Below, piece after piece: positions 54,362 to 60,463 of a stretch of DNA of 64,000 nt; the stretch's first letter is position 1; every line of letters begins with the position of its first letter. A program made the translations under genes and the position numbers. Source of the DNA: a phage. The stretch lies in NCBI GenBank assembly GCA_032986305.1, contig GCA_032986305.1_3672.1, one strand, 5' to 3'. A model generated the notes under the pieces. That model saw only the letters and a program-made list of their open reading frames with translations, was not told where the DNA came from and did not search any database.

Positions 54362-55918
54362 TTAATTTTCCATGTTGGATATGGAATTATCTCTGGTTGA
54401 TGACATCTTAGAAGTGCCGTTGCCAGTGGATCCTGCAGCCATTCCATCGCCAGCCCTACTGATGTCCTGGCCCAAGAGCTTCATTAGCTCTTCCTGATCC
54501 ATGTCCTCGTCAAATCTTTCATCAAACCCACCTACTTCAAGAATCTTATTAATTACTGCAGGAGTTTTTGGCAAGTAACCTACAGCACCGATCCTCTGGA
54601 CAAACTTGGAGAAGCTCTCCATGTCCACCTCTTCAATCAGGCCAGGTTTCAGTTTAGGCATATCATCATCTTCAAGGATGATACCATTCAATGCCAGAAG
54701 CTGTGGAATAAGATCTTTATTGAAGGCCTCAGTGATAATATCTATATCACGCTGAACAAAATGACCATGGATAGACTGTTTTGACTCAGACAGAGAGAAG
54801 GATCCGACGTTATCGTTACCGAGGTTAATAAAGCCAGCACCGAAACGGTCAAGAATCGCCTTCTTACGGGCATCAATCAAATCTTTAGTTGAATACTGCT
54901 TGCCCATACCGTCAACCCCCTTCAGGGTCATGGAGTAAAGCTCTTTACCAGACTTATCTCTATCAGACGGAAGTATAAAGAAACTTTGCTCCCCACTATG
55001 GGCGTTTGCTGCGTCAAGCATAAGATCTGCAACCATTCTCCCTTCCATTGAATTCGGGTCAATACTGGCCTTGTTCAAAATATTGGAAGGAATTTTCAGC
55101 TCAAGCACACCACCAAGGTCTTTGGAACAGCCAACAACCTCAAGGTTTTCAATCAAAACTTTCTCACGGAAAGATCTGTAGCAACCTATCATCGGTGACA
55201 CACCTGCAGGGTTAGATTCTGTTCCTGACAGAGTCATGAGCATAAGCTTTTTAGCAGGGATGAAAATTTCAGGCTCATTAAAGCCTTTTGAAGGCATTGC
55301 AGCAAGAGGTCCAGCCCAGCGTGCATTCTGAGTGTTTAGAAATGCATTAGGTGACTGATAAATACCTGTCAGTGTTCTACTATTCTTGTCAAAGACAAAC
55401 GGCTCTGATCTGGACAGACTGGCCTGAGGTCGGAATGCAATTTTATCAATAAGGAGCATCCCGGCATATTTACCTTCTTTCTCTCTGCGGTATACTTTCT
55501 CAAACAGTGAAAAACCATACTCGTTAAAGGTAGCTGCGCTTCTTGCAATATCCCGAAGGGTTTGTTGGTTTGCTAAATTACGCAAAGAATACTCTATAAG
55601 CTCGGCAGCTTTCTTAGAGTCTTCACTTTTAACATTATAAAGGATCTTAAAATCATTGAATGCTTTCGTGATGAAAACATATTTTGTATCTAAGGCAGTA
55701 GCAACTGTGGAATCACATTTCATAGTCTCCACTGTGGCAATCAGCTGAGGCCAACGCAATTCCTCAACCATCATAGATTGCGATTCTGCCATGATTTGGG
55801 AAAGTGCGCCAGAACCGATCTCACTCATACGAACATTATGAGTTGGTGCGCCTGCGTTCCCAGATTTATTCACAGTTTTGGCTGTGGCGTTGTGTTTCCT
55901 GCGGTTCTTTTTGGACAC
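54362..55918 (-). CDS. portal protein
   Basis: 518-aa protein immediately downstream of terminase, with acidic C-terminus; size, position and composition typical of portal. Confidence 0.7.
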   Translation of the reverse strand: MSKKNRRKHNATAKTVNKSGNAGAPTHNVRMSEIGSGALSQIMAESQSMMVEELRWPQLIATVETMKCDSTVATALDTKYVFITKAFNDFKILYNVKSEDSKKAAELIEYSLRNLANQQTLRDIARSAATFNEYGFSLFEKVYRREKEGKYAGMLLIDKIAFRPQASLSRSEPFVFDKNSRTLTGIYQSPNAFLNTQNARWAGPLAAMPSKGFNEPEIFIPAKKLMLMTLSGTESNPAGVSPMIGCYRSFREKVLIENLEVVGCSKDLGGVLELKIPSNILNKASIDPNSMEGRMVADLMLDAANAHSGEQSFFILPSDRDKSGKELYSMTLKGVDGMGKQYSTKDLIDARKKAILDRFGAGFINLGNDNVGSFSLSESKQSIHGHFVQRDIDIITEAFNKDLIPQLLALNGIILEDDDMPKLKPGLIEEVDMESFSKFVQRIGAVGYLPKTPAVINKILEVGGFDERFDEDMDQEELMKLLGQDISRAGDGMAAGSTGNGTSKMSSTRDNSISNMEN

Positions 55919-55939
55919 AAGCTTTACCCCTCAAAACAG

Positions 55940-55971
55940 TATAACAAAATAGCCCTCGTGTTAGAGGGCTA
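55940..55971 (-). terminator. putative terminator/attenuator between terminase and portal
   Basis: Minus-strand hairpin agccctc-taacac-gagggct followed by ATTTTGTTAT. Confidence 0.4.
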
Positions 55972-56020
55972 GTATCTCCGATTACTCTATTCTACCACAT
56001 CTAATTAAGATTGGCAACAC

Positions 56021-56801
56021 TTAGATAAAACGCTTGAACATAGAAGGTGATGAGATTGATGGAATCACACAAGGAAGTGCTACCTCCTCTTTCTCCAGGA
56101 AATTAATTGCAGAAGCTACACAGTCAGCCCAGTCGTCTTTTCTGTTAAATGTTGATCTTTCCCCGTTGAATTTTTCAAGTTCAGTCAGAAATGCTTCCAG
56201 AGTATCAGGATGGAAACTGGATTTTACAATCCTAACCATTCCTTGTTGGGCAAGATTGGCAAAAGGTGAGAACCTTGTCAGTTTAGATTTGTTGGAAGGC
56301 ATTGGGTCTTCTTCAACCCTAAACCCTTCGGCGAGCAAGGATCTGGAGGATGTTAAGAACTCACTCTTACCTGCCTGACCGGGGTCCACAGAGAATACGA
56401 TTATACAATCATCACCATCAAACTGCGCCTGTTTCCTGATGATCACATCTCGTTCACCAGCCTTTTTACAGAACTTGCCTTCCAGACCTGTGGAATACCT
56501 CCCGTCATCCACGTTTTCAGGACAATAATCCCCTGACAGGTAATAAAAGCCGTCGCTATCTTTACTTACCTTAACACTGGCGGTAAAGTCAGGAAATTTA
56601 TTACCGGAAGTTCTGTCGGTTCCTGCCTTATCCCATGCCCTGCAAGATACTGATCCAAGGGGTACTCTATCGGCATCACGAAGGAAAGATCTTTGAAAAT
56701 AGTTTGCACCCTCAGGCTTTGCAAACCAGTTGCCATGAAGAAGCTGGGCTTTTTCAAGCTCGGGCAGACCTTCAAGAAAAGCAAGGTATTCTGGGTTGTC
56801 T
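56021..56801 (-). CDS. terL: terminase large subunit, exon 2 (nuclease domain)
   Basis: Begins with the conserved DNPEYLAFLEG ... LLHGNW region that in contiguous TerL proteins follows the ATPase domain; reading frame is open upstream into the intron with no ATG (ORF-track start 56806 is TTG). Splice junction predicted, uncertain by 1-3 nt. Confidence 0.7.
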
Positions 56802-57804
56802 CTCAAGCAGACAGGATTATCGAATCCTTATATTCAAAGGTGGTCGCAACACCACCTTCCGCACCTTTACGTGCTGCTGCATGTTACCATGCAGAGTAGA
56901 CTATATCACCACCCATTTCAGGGTGCTTCGCTTTTCGAGCGCCATAAGCTTGCGCCCTACTCCCTCTCGGGATAGTCGTTGAACTACATTACCAATCGTA
57001 ATTGTTTGAAATATAGGTGTAAGTCTTACGGTCTTTTATTCCTTTAACAACACTAAAACTTACTCCCCACTTCTTAGCTATTTTATTTACACACAAGACC
57101 TTATCACTAAGATCCTCGCAGATACCTATTATCTTGTGCTCACTTATCCGATTAGAGGTTGGCACTTTTCTAAAGTTAAACTCTTTAGAAATATCTGGGT
57201 ATACTGAGCCATTCTTTATACCACTTACAAGTGGTTGATTGACACCAAACATTTCACAAATGTCTTTTACCCTTGCGCCTTGCTCTAACAGCCTACATAT
57301 TTCAAGAGCAGTGGCATCATCCAGGGACCTGTATTTATTGACATAGTCCTTTTTAAGTCCCATTTCATGAGCGTGATGTGTGTTTTCCTCAGGCGTTGTC
57401 CACTCAAGGTTCCATGCGGCGTTATTCAACTTATTACCATCTAGGTGGTTTACTTGAGTTTTCACGCTGGGATTGTCATTATCAACAAAAGTCATAGCAA
57501 TCACTCTGTGAACGAGCACTTGGAACTTTTTACCGTCCTCGCACAAAGTTACCATAGCATAGCCAGTCTTTTTCTGCACATTAGGATGGAGGAATTTATT
57601 AGAATACAGACTGTAAATTCTGCCATCGTATGTAGCACAATAATGATTGTAGCCTAAAAAGCCTAAATTTTTCATTTCAAACATCTCCCTACTACAGGTT
57701 CGGAAGGGTAATTATAGCTGCTGATTGTCCGTTTAGCAATCGGATTTCCCAGCAATTAACGAAGTTATTCGACGTGCATTTCTGCACGAAGCCACTATCA
57801 TTTA
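56802..57804 (-). mobile_element. group I intron (about 1.0 kb) with HNH homing endonuclease ORF in a peripheral loop
   Basis: Minus-strand core elements: P-like AATTGCTGGGAAA (plus 57745-57757), Q-like AATCAGCAGC (57717-57726), R-like GTTCAACGACTATC (56974-56987), S-like GATATAGTC (about 56893-56905); P/Q and R/S are mutually complementary. Predicted P1: exon CCAU pairs with intron GUGG; intron ends in G. Confidence 0.7.
56989..57684 (-). CDS. HNH homing endonuclease (intron-encoded)
   Basis: QVNHLDGNKLNNAAWNLEWTTPEENTHH is an HNH motif; own RBS (GGGAG) and stop; lies between intron Q and R elements. Confidence 0.8.
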   Translation of the reverse strand: MFEMKNLGFLGYNHYCATYDGRIYSLYSNKFLHPNVQKKTGYAMVTLCEDGKKFQVLVHRVIAMTFVDNDNPSVKTQVNHLDGNKLNNAAWNLEWTTPEENTHHAHEMGLKKDYVNKYRSLDDATALEICRLLEQGARVKDICEMFGVNQPLVSGIKNGSVYPDISKEFNFRKVPTSNRISEHKIIGICEDLSDKVLCVNKIAKKWGVSFSVVKGIKDRKTYTYISNNYDW

Positions 57805-58547
57805 ATGGTTGCGCCTATAAACGAGAATGACAACGGTCTTGGCTTGATCTCCACACCCAGTCCGTTAACCGTGGTGTATTTCTCTATCAACTCTTCTTTA
57901 GAGTCTCCCCAAATAAATTCACCGTCGCGTCGGATAAAATATCTTTTCTTACCGCATTTCTCCGGATCTGGATACCCTTCATCGTCCAACCACCATCTAA
58001 CCAGTTTGGCAAGCATGTGTTCTGAATCGGGGTTACAGCTGATAACCATTCTTGATGGATACTTTGACTGAGATCGCAGACGAGACATCAGATAGTCTAT
58101 CTGCTCCCATTCGAACTGCGTTCCCTCATCGAAGCAAACCATGGTGTACTCAAGCCCTTGATGGTTAAGCTTATCTTGTACATACTCCATGTGGCAGTAT
58201 TTTACAACAGCTCCCTTTTTGCTCCTATCCCACTTGCCAGTGTTCGGATCAAACCGTGGAAAAATGAACTTATGATCCTTCTCTCTGAACTTTGGCTTAA
58301 TGTTTTCAGGCAGATCACTATAAATAGCTACTGCTTTAGGCCATAGTCCACCCTCACCTTCCAACTGTGGGGTTGTTCTTCGGAACATAACCACAGAGCT
58401 GTGGGGGTCATCAATAATTTTAAGCGGCATCAACTGCAAGAGGAACGACTTGCCAGACCCTGCGGCACCGCCGATTACCAAAATATCTGCATCATTTTCG
58501 AGGATCATCTTCTGCTTTTCAGAACACGGTCCGTAAATCTTAGACAT
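57805..58547 (-). CDS. terL: terminase large subunit, exon 1 (ATPase domain)
   Basis: Walker A VIGGAAGSGKS, Walker B MVCFDEGTQFEW; AAGGAGAG RBS; in-frame TGA at 57798-57800 lies in the intron. Joined exons give a 507-aa product. Confidence 0.8.
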
Positions 58548-58834
58548 TAACCTCTCTCCTTTGGAAAAAGTGTTCTAATATAGTCTTGCAAAATGATCAA
58601 TTTAGCTCTATCATTGCTACAAGACAGATTATTATCCCTCATAATGCCAGAGTTCACTGCATCTGGCGCACCTTTCTTCAAAGGCATAGCTTTAGCAGGT
58701 GGTTTCATGGCACCTTCCGGGGGCTTAACAATCAACCTTCCTACATCTGGAGGGTCAATCTTGTATTCTTTCTCAACACTGGTTGCACACCCACATAATA
58801 ACAAGCACGCAATAAACAGTGTAGCAACTCTCAT
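58547..58834 (-). CDS. o-spanin (Rz1-like outer membrane lipoprotein)
   Basis: Signal peptide with lipobox-like LLCGC, proline-rich mature region; start overlaps i-spanin stop. Confidence 0.6.
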   Translation of the reverse strand: MRVATLFIACLLLCGCATSVEKEYKIDPPDVGRLIVKPPEGAMKPPAKAMPLKKGAPDAVNSGIMRDNNLSCSNDRAKLIILQDYIRTLFPKERG

Positions 58835-59650: not shown

Positions 59651-59727
59651 TGGTCTCCACGGAGTGATTCGAACACTCGACCTCCTGATCCCAAATCAGG
59701 CGCTCTACCAAGCTGAGCTACGCGGAG
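59651..59727 (-). tRNA. tRNA-Pro (anticodon TGG)
   Basis: Manual fold: acceptor CTCCGCG/CGTGGAG, D-arm TAGCTCAGCTTGGTAGAGC, anticodon loop TTTGGGA, T-arm GAGTGTTCGAATCACTC, encoded CCA. Confidence 0.75.
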
Positions 59728-59738
59728 TATTTACTATT

Positions 59739-59813
59739 TGGTGGCCCTGGGTGGAATTGAACCACCGTCTGGCGATTATGAGTCGCTTGCTTGAACCTTC
59801 CAGCTACAGGGCC
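59739..59813 (-). tRNA. tRNA-Met (anticodon CAT; Ile-lysidine type not excluded)
   Basis: Manual fold: acceptor GGCCCTG/CAGGGCC, anticodon loop CTCATAA, T-loop GGTTCAATTCC, encoded CCA. Confidence 0.7.
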
Positions 59814-59814
59814 T

Positions 59815-59890
59815 TGGTGCTGATGGCAGGACTTGAACCTGCAACCTATTGATTACAAATCAATTGCACTACCAATTGTGCTACATCAGC
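59815..59890 (-). tRNA. tRNA-Thr (anticodon TGT)
   Basis: Manual fold: acceptor GCTGATG/CATCAGC, D-arm GCACAATTGGTAGTGC, anticodon arm ATTGA-TTTGTAA-TCAAT, T-arm GCAGGTTCAAGTCCTGC, CCA. Confidence 0.8.
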
Positions 59891-59895
59891 AAAAA

Positions 59896-59994
59896 GGTGC
59901 TAGGCGGTGGAATCGAACCACCTATGTATTCAACGACTACCTCGTCTATTTTCAGGATTAAAAATCCTCGCCCTTGCCAAAGGGCTTACCTAGC
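59896..59994 (-). tRNA. atypical tRNA-like gene (about 99 nt; canonical reading of the loop would give anticodon TTT)
   Basis: Good acceptor (GCTAGGT/GCCTAGC), D-arm (GCCC-TTTGGCAA-GGGC) and T-arm (GGTGG-TTCGATT-CCACC), but about 30 nt separate the anticodon stem from the T-arm; CCA not encoded. Confidence 0.45.
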
Positions 59995-60092
59995 TCAGTA
60001 TGTTGACCATGTTGCTAGTCGGCGATGACGACTGTAACATTTGATAATCCGGTTCTGCTTCCGGCTTTCGCTTAATTACAAGGTCAACAATG

Positions 60093-60183
60093 TGGCGGAG
60101 AGTAATGGAATCGAACCATCATCGAGTCATCCTCAATGGGACGGTTTTCAAGACCGCTTGAGCACCATTGCTCCCTACCCTCC
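60093..60183 (-). tRNA. tRNA-Ser (anticodon TGA), long variable arm
   Basis: Manual fold: acceptor GGAGGGT/ACTCTCC, anticodon arm GCGGT-CTTGAAA-ACCGT, long variable arm, T-loop TTCGATT, CCA. Confidence 0.65.
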
Positions 60184-60297
60184 TTTATAAATTATACTGA
60201 TAATGACACTGATTTTCGAGCAGTTAGTGACTAGTATAAACGACGATAAATATCAATGCCATTATCTGTATTATTTACGCATCTAAAAATATAAATT

Positions 60298-60384
60298 TGG
60301 TGGGGAGTGGTGGAGTCGAACCACCCGAGTCGCAATGACAATAGATTTACAGTCTACACCGCTACCTCTACGGGATAACTCCCC
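60298..60384 (-). tRNA. tRNA-Tyr (anticodon GTA), long variable arm
   Basis: Manual fold: acceptor GGGGAGT/ACTCCCC, anticodon arm GTAGA-CTGTAAA-TCTAT, variable arm, T-arm GGTGGTTCGACTCCACC, CCA. Confidence 0.7.
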
Positions 60385-60388
60385 AATT

Positions 60389-60463
60389 TGGCACCCCGTA
60401 CTGGACTCGAACCAGTGTCAACGGCTTAGAAGGCCGCTGCTTTATCCACTAAGCTAACAGGGC
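60389..60463 (-). tRNA. tRNA-Arg (anticodon TCT)
   Basis: Manual fold: acceptor GCCCTGT/ACGGGGT, D-arm GCTT-AGTGGATA-AAGC, anticodon arm GCGGC-CTTCTAA-GCCGT, T-arm ACTGGTTCGAGTCCAGT, CCA. Confidence 0.75.

Follow-up and report, generated by a model that had tools for sequence, protein, structure and literature searches.

The td and nrdB introns of phage T4 are group I introns of subgroup IA2 that carry the ORFs for I-TevI and I-TevIII in their P6 regions, and the extra helices P7.1 and P7.2 define subgroup IA in the classification of Michel and Westhof. The T4 endonucleases are of the GIY-YIG (I-TevI) or degenerate HNH (I-TevIII) type and are not I-HmuI-like; I-HmuI comes from a group I intron in the DNA polymerase gene of Bacillus phage SPO1. 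Group I introns have been known in terminase genes since 1995, when one was described in Lactobacillus phage LL-H (Mikkonen and Alatossava, 1995, cited in PMC3606486), and "Introns in terminase" were described for phage rV5 by Kropinski et al. (2013; PMC3606486). The RefSeq record of rV5 presents terL as a three-piece join with an HNH gene inside. In Pectobacterium phage CB7, also a member of the Vequintavirinae, splicing of an HNH-carrying group I intron in terL was shown by RT-PCR (PMC7344957); that intron lies at GVD|EGTQF near Walker B, which is another insertion site. The CB7 experiment was considered as direct support for splicing of the intron described below and was set aside, since the two sites differ. 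No published splicing data for the HNH-carrying Vequintavirus terL intron were found in the literature searched.

Here we analyse the terL locus of an rV5-like coliphage of the genus Vequintavirus (99.0% identity to ECML-10), contained in a 64,000-nt stretch of DNA that is called the window in its entirety; all features described here lie on its minus strand. We consider it very likely that the HNH-carrying group I intron found in this gene is the second of the two annotated terL introns of rV5, and hence an element already known and published since 2013. The intron of rV5 (V5, NC_011041) occupies the same site in the same gene, has the same length of 979 nt and the same HNH ORF, and is 99.6% identical in its core, but a further group I intron of rV5, 319 nt long and ORF-less, at the Walker B site (window-equivalent 58122|58123), is missing from the window. 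The same insertion site is used, with 94% core identity, in VB-EcoM-WM (PQ014731) and its relatives, for instance BASEL phage RudolfGeigy; the VB-EcoM-WM allele differs in being ORF-less and 266 nt long, with a short P6-loop hairpin instead of the window's insert of about 730 nt, and in having no TATAAT box. With T4 td and nrdB the window intron has in common the helices P7.1 and P7.2, an ORF looped out from P6 and residence in an essential phage gene, whereas the host genes differ. Similarity found by blastn is local, reaching 81-83% over P3-P5 for nrdB and 91.7% over P7'-P9 for td, and many other phage group I introns are matched as well. The SPO1 enzyme I-HmuI (1U3E), likewise encoded within a phage group I intron, resembles the window protein in its N-terminal and HNH regions, but it differs in host gene and target, and its C-terminal DNA-binding region aligns only weakly with that protein.

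The anatomy of the interrupted gene follows from its two reading frames. Exon 1 of terL (57805..58547, 743 nt) encodes the ATPase domain, whose Walker motifs are GGAAGSGKS (A) and CFDE (B); the corresponding ORF (58547..57798, 249 aa; Pfam Terminase_6N, E 6.8e-17) is stopped by a TGA at 57800-57798, just past the junction, in agreement with an initial annotation of this DNA that had named the same two motifs and a stop at 57798. Its 3' end, ...GCAACCAU, was set by comparison with phage FV3, and the final U is the U of the U·G pair in P1. Exon 2 (56021..56825, 805 nt including the stop codon) encodes the nuclease domain, and its ORF, ending at 56021 (Pfam Terminase_6C, E 3.9e-07), has no ATG start, as had been recognized; the nuclease half does not resume at 56801, as was then thought, since the exon proper begins at 56825, in a frame that is open from 56827 onwards. 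The 5' end of exon 2 reads A|UUC GAU AAU CCU, encoding ...I FDNPVCLRDNPEYL.... The two halves match positions 147-373 and 380-621 of the PHROG 979 profile, in order, and in this large terminase subunit of the T4-like type (Terminase_6N plus Terminase_6C) the ATPase and RNaseH-like nuclease domains are colinear with those of uninterrupted homologues. Downstream of terL lies a terminator-like hairpin (55950..55971), whose equivalent in rV5 is annotated as a Rho-independent terminator.

Between these exons the intron occupies 56826..57804, and precisely these 979 nt are missing from terL of FV3; in FV3, JES2013 and APECc02 the intron is absent and the terL reading frame intact. It begins with UAAAUGAUAGUGG and ends with ...GAAUAUAAGG, the terminal G (omega-G, ...AAGG) being at 56826. 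Only one placement of the 979-nt indel satisfies both the U·G pair at the 5' site and the terminal G; the alternative placement (exon ...ACCAUU, intron AAAU...GGA) was rejected, because the intron would end in A and not in G. Spliced in silico, the exons form an ORF of 1548 nt, the length of FV3 terL, that encodes a 515-aa TerL identical to the FV3 protein at 514 of 515 residues and colinear with it, as well as with CB7 TerL across the junction. By comparison this junction is ...FSFIGATI|FDNPVCLRDNPEYLAFLEG..., corresponding to ACCAU|AUUCGAU in RNA and predicted to read ...GGCGCAACCAU|AUUCGAUAAUCCUGUC... in DNA letters. The initial annotation had paired exon CCAU (57808-57805) with intron GUGG (57795-57792) and thereby located the 5' boundary, 57804, exactly; it had, however, assumed a gap of 1003 nt and a junction ...GATI-DNPEYL... 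in a 507-aa product. The comparison with FV3 gives an intervening sequence of 979 nt (57804..56826), a 3' site 24 nt further upstream and 515 aa; the exons do align colinearly with uninterrupted TerL proteins, but the 507-aa product lacks FDNPVCLR. This segment is encoded by the 24 nt between the two candidate 3' sites and is kept in FV3, and its 8-aa homologue is FDNPPMLE in phage 19-1-2 and YDNPPMLI in Certrevirus CB7.

A complete set of group I helices can be drawn on the sequence. In P1 (57792..57808), exon CCAU and intron UA (57808-57803) pair with UAGUGG (57797-57792) across a 5-nt loop, which puts the 5' splice site between 57805 and 57804 with U57805 in a U·G wobble; this helix is reproduced by an unconstrained MFE fold and is unchanged across the five sequences compared. 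The 5' core (57716..57788) consists of P2 (57788-57773), the 5' strand of P3 (57764-57758), P4 (57755-57749 with 57724-57718), P5 (57744-57728) and the 5' strand of P6 (57717-57716). The 3' core (56837..56985) holds the 3' strand of P6 (56985-56984), P7 (56977-56972 with 56904-56899), P7.1 (56971-56962), a predicted P7.2 (56957-56937), the 3' strand of P3 (56932-56926), P8 (56924-56911), P9 (56894-56877), P9.1 (56874-56861) and P9.2 (56858-56837). Rfam matches, the MFE fold and pair counts underlie both core segments, in which helices P3-P8 stand in canonical order, the P3/P7 pseudoknot included. The four conserved elements reported initially were each found once on the minus strand and in the order given: P (57757-57745), Q (57726-57717), R (56984-56971) and S (56907-56899).

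None of the drawn pairs is disrupted in the window sequence, and P1-P6 as well as P7.1-P9.2, which comprise all helices outside the pseudoknot, appear in the unconstrained MFE fold. Across the hand-drawn P1-P9.2 structure (70 pairs in five sequences), 99.1% of cells are paired, compared with 34-46% in slid controls. Compensatory double changes occur in five pairs, one each in P2, P5 and P6 and two in P9.2, in a small covariation sample of five distinct sequences that represent essentially three lineages. The loops of P7.1 and P9 are still GNRA despite substitutions, and one P7.2 pair is U·U in 19-1-2. The predicted and mostly conserved P7.1 and P7.2, between P7 and the 3' strand of P3, point to a subgroup-IA-like architecture. 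With a P1 loop of only 5 nt, no canonical P10 can be drawn; a more speculative possibility is that J2/3 (UCGAAU, 57772-57767) instead forms an unusual 6-bp pairing with the first six bases of exon 2, AUUCGA.

Against the RF00028 covariance model, whose gathering score is 50 bits, the window's own intron gives two split matches, one on either side of the ORF insert, the first at 35.3 bits with E 5.5e-07 and the second at 21.5 bits with E 0.0078. A gathering-threshold Rfam scan of the whole window does not report it; an E-value scan of the window yielded no further group I intron. The scores are split and fall below threshold because about 730 nt with the HNH ORF occupy the P6 loop. The ORF-less allele of VB-EcoM-WM, with its core 94% identical to that of the window, reaches 92.7 bits (E 1.9e-23), above the gathering score that neither window half attains. 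By these E-values the group I match is well beyond chance, and assignment of the window intron to RF00028 would rest on the ORF-less homologue together with the hand-drawn structure.

The HNH homing-endonuclease ORF (56989..57684, 231 aa) lies in the P6 loop, between elements Q and R as originally noted, where the ORF-bearing insert of about 730 nt corresponds to 18-21 nt in the ORF-less allele. Its product matches Pfam HNH_3 over residues 57-102 (28.0 bits, cut-off 24.8), PHROG 59 (E 1.9e-51) and I-HmuI (PDB 1U3E; E 3.1e-11, residues 11-154), and is I-HmuI-like, combining HNH_3 with a helix-turn-helix. The second ATG, at 57675, is likely the true start, 9 nt after a GGGAG Shine-Dalgarno sequence that folding predicts to lie in a weak hairpin of 5 bp, CUUCC/GGGAG (local fold -8.1 kcal/mol). 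Just upstream of the ORF and still inside the intron, the promoter-like site TTGCTA-17-TATAAT (57711..57739, 10 of 12 matches) is a lead that possibly represents a working promoter; a scan of the region gave eight sites where 6.1 ± 2.4 are expected, which is not above chance. TATAAT is found in the ORF-containing alleles, that of 19-1-2 included, and is absent from the ORF-less allele. ORF and intron do not always go together, for the intron also occurs in copies that lack the ORF. A more far-reaching reading, in which the endonuclease cassette would have been acquired independently, as a module equipped with a sigma-70-like promoter and a hairpin-occluded Shine-Dalgarno sequence, and in which the 6-bp J2/3 pairing would align the 3' exon, appears to us rather doubtful.

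The element is polymorphic among relatives. The intron occurs with the ORF in 14 Vequintavirus records and without it in several, the large majority being intron-free at this site. At least six combinations of selfish elements, built from two introns that may or may not contain an ORF, are observed in Vequintavirus terL, and the window has one of them. In a different genus, terL of Avunavirus phage 19-1-2 is interrupted at the same codon by this HNH-carrying intron. Presence and absence among alleles, together with this occurrence in a second genus, indirectly favour homing by cleavage of intron-less alleles. The terL gene of Avunavirus adds an intein-like insertion. Note also that rV5 and its intron-bearing relatives are recorded as propagated, viable isolates; therefore an intact TerL must be made in them.

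The central proposal of the initial annotation, that a group I intron with an HNH ORF in the peripheral Q-R loop interrupts terL, is upheld by the absence of the element from FV3, the 92.7-bit score of the ORF-less allele, the covariation and the likeness to I-HmuI. If such an intron ended instead at the G at 56802, it would be 1003 nt long and would leave a 507-aa TerL, with the junction ACCAU|AUUCGAUAAUCC (in longer form ACCAU|ACAACCCAGAA). This product is in frame, and the DNP..L motif would survive, since two copies exist, FDNPVCL and RDNPEYL; nevertheless, the indel relative to FV3 is exactly 979 nt, intron-less FV3, JES2013 and APECc02 keep the 24 nt in question as coding sequence, the homologous 8-aa segment is retained in 19-1-2 and CB7, and with the halves as first drawn the PHROG 979 profile shows a gap of about six positions between them, so that we find this 3' site scarcely credible.

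Some endonuclease-split phage genes yield separately translated polypeptides that assemble, and a free-standing HNH gene might likewise have split terL here, the two products assembling with no RNA splicing. Many GenBank records (ECML-10, YP-6 and HdK5 among them) do show terL as a pair of unjoined 'terminase' CDSs accompanied by an HNH gene, but the C-terminal piece has neither an ATG nor a Shine-Dalgarno sequence, its frame first opening at 56827, and the flanks of the HNH ORF make up a complete, covarying group I core. Moreover, the ORF-less insertion still interrupts terL and is therefore sensible only with removal at the RNA level, which leaves an unspliced split gene very improbable. A decayed, splicing-defective intron, with terL a pseudogene in this phage or the sequence misassembled, would accord with window scores below the Rfam gathering score; these are explained by the insertion of about 730 nt in the P6 loop, all drawn pairs are intact, and the core shares 99.6% identity with rV5 and 98.5% with HdK5, phages that are both propagated as isolates, which makes decay most improbable. 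An intein was rejected as well, for the exon-1 frame meets the TGA at 57800-57798 and the HNH ORF, which has a start codon to itself, forms a separate cistron.

Sequence comparison establishes the anatomy and boundaries of the 979-nt group I intron, its homology, its conserved structure and its presence/absence polymorphism; for splicing chemistry, endonuclease activity and homing, established knowledge of group I introns and of I-HmuI suggests the following course. The terL gene would be transcribed as a single pre-mRNA, in which the intron would fold into a P1-P9.2 ribozyme with the P3/P7 pseudoknot and with P7.1 and P7.2 as in subgroup IA phage introns. An exogenous guanosine would attack after exon U57805, which the guide sequence GUGG inside the intron holds in its U·G pair, and the released exon 1 would then attack after the terminal G at 56826, joining ...ACCAU to AUUCGAU... 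and giving the 515-aa TerL. From the P6 loop, the I-HmuI-like HNH gene would be expressed by way of the Shine-Dalgarno sequence that precedes it and possibly of a promoter of its own. When phages infect together, its product would be expected to cut or nick terL alleles that lack the intron, close to GCAACAATC|TTCGAT, and recombinational repair would copy the intron into the cut allele (homing). The putative intron-less target site of the FV3 type is GGCGCAACAATCTTCGATAATCC, and its spliced, intron-plus counterpart in the window is GGCGCAACCATATTCGATAATCC.

The value of these results is in the first place one of annotation, as many rV5-like GenBank records, including those of ECML-10, YP-6, HdK5 and VB-EcoM-WM, break terL up into two or three "terminase" fragments or enter it as hypothetical proteins, and some rV5-like phages are therapeutic or biocontrol candidates; exact exon coordinates permit the correct terL join. 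The locus is also a further example of an essential late gene that tolerates a homing intron, and the polymorphism of this intron among near-identical phages would suit homing experiments. With its several combinations of selfish elements, Vequintavirus terL would be a natural system in which to study competition among homing elements.

The interruption of the terminase large subunit gene (terL) is real, and the initial annotation was correct in kind in proposing a group I intron with an HNH endonuclease ORF, as indicated by its absence from the intron-less allele of FV3, the Rfam score of an ORF-less allele (92.7 bits), a conserved structure and a match to the endonuclease I-HmuI. The ORFs, Walker motifs and four core elements it quoted were all located where it had placed them. 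On the minus strand, a Terminase_6N-matching ORF of 249 aa (58547..57798), an HNH_3 ORF of 231 aa (57684..56989) and a Terminase_6C-matching ORF of 261 aa (56806..56021) occur in a region that also contains spanin and portal genes on the same strand. A tRNA gene cluster (Pro, Met, Thr, Ser, Tyr, Arg) is found at 59651-60463 (minus strand); among its members is an unusual 99-nt ARAGORN prediction (59896-59994) with a four-base 'anticodon' (tRNA-???) and an Rfam tRNA score of 31 bits. Megablast of window 55900-58700 against phage records matched 154 records, nearly all from rV5-like coliphages (Vequintavirus), with ECML-10 as best match (99.0% over the full length). The region is also matched by 18 unannotated GenBank records, MG0656xx ('Campylobacter phage' A142, A141, A140, C7, etc.), the listed ones at ~97-99% identity; their sequences suggest that these Campylobacter jejuni-labelled records have mislabelled hosts or represent coliphages contaminating the preparations.

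Intron boundaries were established by aligning the window with rV5, FV3, VB-EcoM-WM and ECML-10. Exactly 979 nt of the window terL are missing in FV3, which reads GGCGCAACAATC followed directly by TTCGATAATCC, where the window reads GGCGCAACCAT, then the intron (T...GG), then ATTCGATAATCC. Only one placement of this indel puts a U ahead of the 5′ splice site and also leaves a G at the end of the intron: exon 1 ends at 57805, the intron spans 57804..56826 and exon 2 starts at 56825 (minus strand). P1 then has 6 bp, formed by exon CCAU and intron UA with UAGUGG, and its splice-site pair is the canonical U·G. The ORF spliced in silico (1548 nt) equals FV3 terL in length, and 514 positions of its 515-aa product are identical to FV3 TerL. 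This comparison confirms the 5′ splice site proposed initially (exon 1 ending at 57805), but moves the 3′ site to 56826, since the G chosen earlier lies 24 nt too far downstream and the resulting 507-aa product lacks FDNPVCLR. That 3′ site was rejected, as FDNPVCLR is coding in every intron-less allele examined; Avunavirus 19-1-2 and Certrevirus CB7 conserve the segment, as FDNPPMLE and YDNPPMLI, respectively.

At Rfam gathering thresholds, the whole window returned only tRNAs and no intron match. Under an E-value threshold, the group I intron family RF00028 matched in two separate halves, 56877-57115 (3′ half, 35.3 bits, E 5.5e-07) and 57453-57814 (5′ half, 21.5 bits, E 0.0078), split by a ~730-nt insert in the P6 loop. 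Both halves score below the gathering score of 50, whereas the same intron without ORF in VB-EcoM-WM (266 nt, shared core 94% identical to the window's) lies well above it at 92.7 bits (E 1.9e-23). Unconstrained MFE folding, applied to the ORF-less intron and to the window intron with its ORF deleted, gives P1, P2, P3, P4, P5, P6, P7.1, P7.2, P8, P9, P9.1 and P9.2, to which P7, pseudoknotted with P3, was added by hand. Across five distinct sequences (window, rV5, HdK5, WM, 19-1-2), standard pairs occupy 99.1% of 348 cells, compared with 34-46% when partners are slid by 1-3 columns, and the observed values were reached by none of 500 shuffles. Five pairs show changes on both sides (P2, P5, P6 and, twice, P9.2); one P7.2 pair is U·U in 19-1-2. 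The presence of P7.1 and P7.2 indicates the subgroup-IA architecture of phage introns. With the ORF-less intron as query, blastn returns locally similar stretches in the nrdB and td introns of T4 and in hundreds of other phage introns. In addition, J2/3 (UCGAAU, 57767-57772, minus strand) and the six bases that open exon 2 (AUUCGA, 56820-56825, minus strand) are fully complementary, and they are paired in the MFE fold. The pairing is invariant across the five sequences and hence beyond test by covariation, with a rough chance expectation of ~0.06; as the P1 loop has only 5 nt, this pairing might substitute for P10.

The ORF-encoded protein scores above the Pfam HNH_3 cut-off, carries helix-turn-helix signals, matches PHROG 59 and aligns with I-HmuI (PDB 1U3E), an intron-encoded nicking endonuclease (E 3.1e-11). 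GGGAG directly adjoins the first ATG, which makes the second one (57675) the more probable start codon. Shortly ahead of the ORF stands TTGCTA-17-TATAAT (57739-57711), the region's top sigma-70-like match, which the ORF-less allele lacks; the promoter scan found no excess of such sites over chance in the region. At the junction, all eight intron-plus alleles examined have ACC-AU, the ACC (Thr) codon at 57806 (minus strand) lying two codons before the junction, whereas ACA-AUC or ACA-AUA is found in the three intron-less ones (FV3, JES2013, APECc02). It is the silent C that makes the CCAU/GUGG pairing of P1 complete; this C may also alter the endonuclease target or represent a co-conversion marker.

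The intron with HNH ORF occurs in 14 Vequintavirus records and the ORF-less form in several, while the site is empty in the large majority. A second terL intron splits the Walker B region right after CFDEG, before TQF (window-equivalent 58122/58123, minus strand; locus L001, 2771-3049); it measures 319 nt in rV5 (RF00028, 84.9 bits), is present in several relatives and has its site empty in the window. JES2013 and HdK5 carry an 883-nt insertion there, including an endonuclease-VII-like ORF. Avunavirus 19-1-2 has the same HNH intron in the same codon (75% identity over the aligned region), and its terL (L005 3735-4970, minus strand; also L008) contains a large in-frame insertion in the P-loop region (...VVVTGNSGKSYLLQLMP) that looks like an intein, giving three selfish elements with its two group I introns. 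GenBank lists these terL parts as separate 'terminase' CDSs. The intron query also matches FV3 NC_019517 125946-125990 and Escherichia phage navn 66060-66191 (nrdD); such loci in Vequintavirus genomes, e.g., within the anaerobic ribonucleotide reductase gene, show that these genomes have further group I introns elsewhere, although none besides that of terL was detectable in the window.

The window intron has been described before in the rV5 phage group, and its novelty is therefore low. In RefSeq, rV5 gp065 is joined from three pieces ("ORF64ABC"), and the HNH gene gp066 lies within it. Kropinski et al. (2013; PMC3606486) described terL in three segments, one with a homing endonuclease, under "Introns in terminase"; they credit D. 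Shub with assistance in finding the intron. Splicing of an HNH-containing terL intron was shown by RT-PCR in Certrevirus CB7 (Buttimer et al., 2020; PMC7344957), although that intron has a different insertion site (GVD/EGTQF); for the window's intron, the literature searched yielded no direct splicing data. The remaining value of the finding lies in the correct annotation of terL and in a naturally occurring polymorphism that lends itself to the study of homing.
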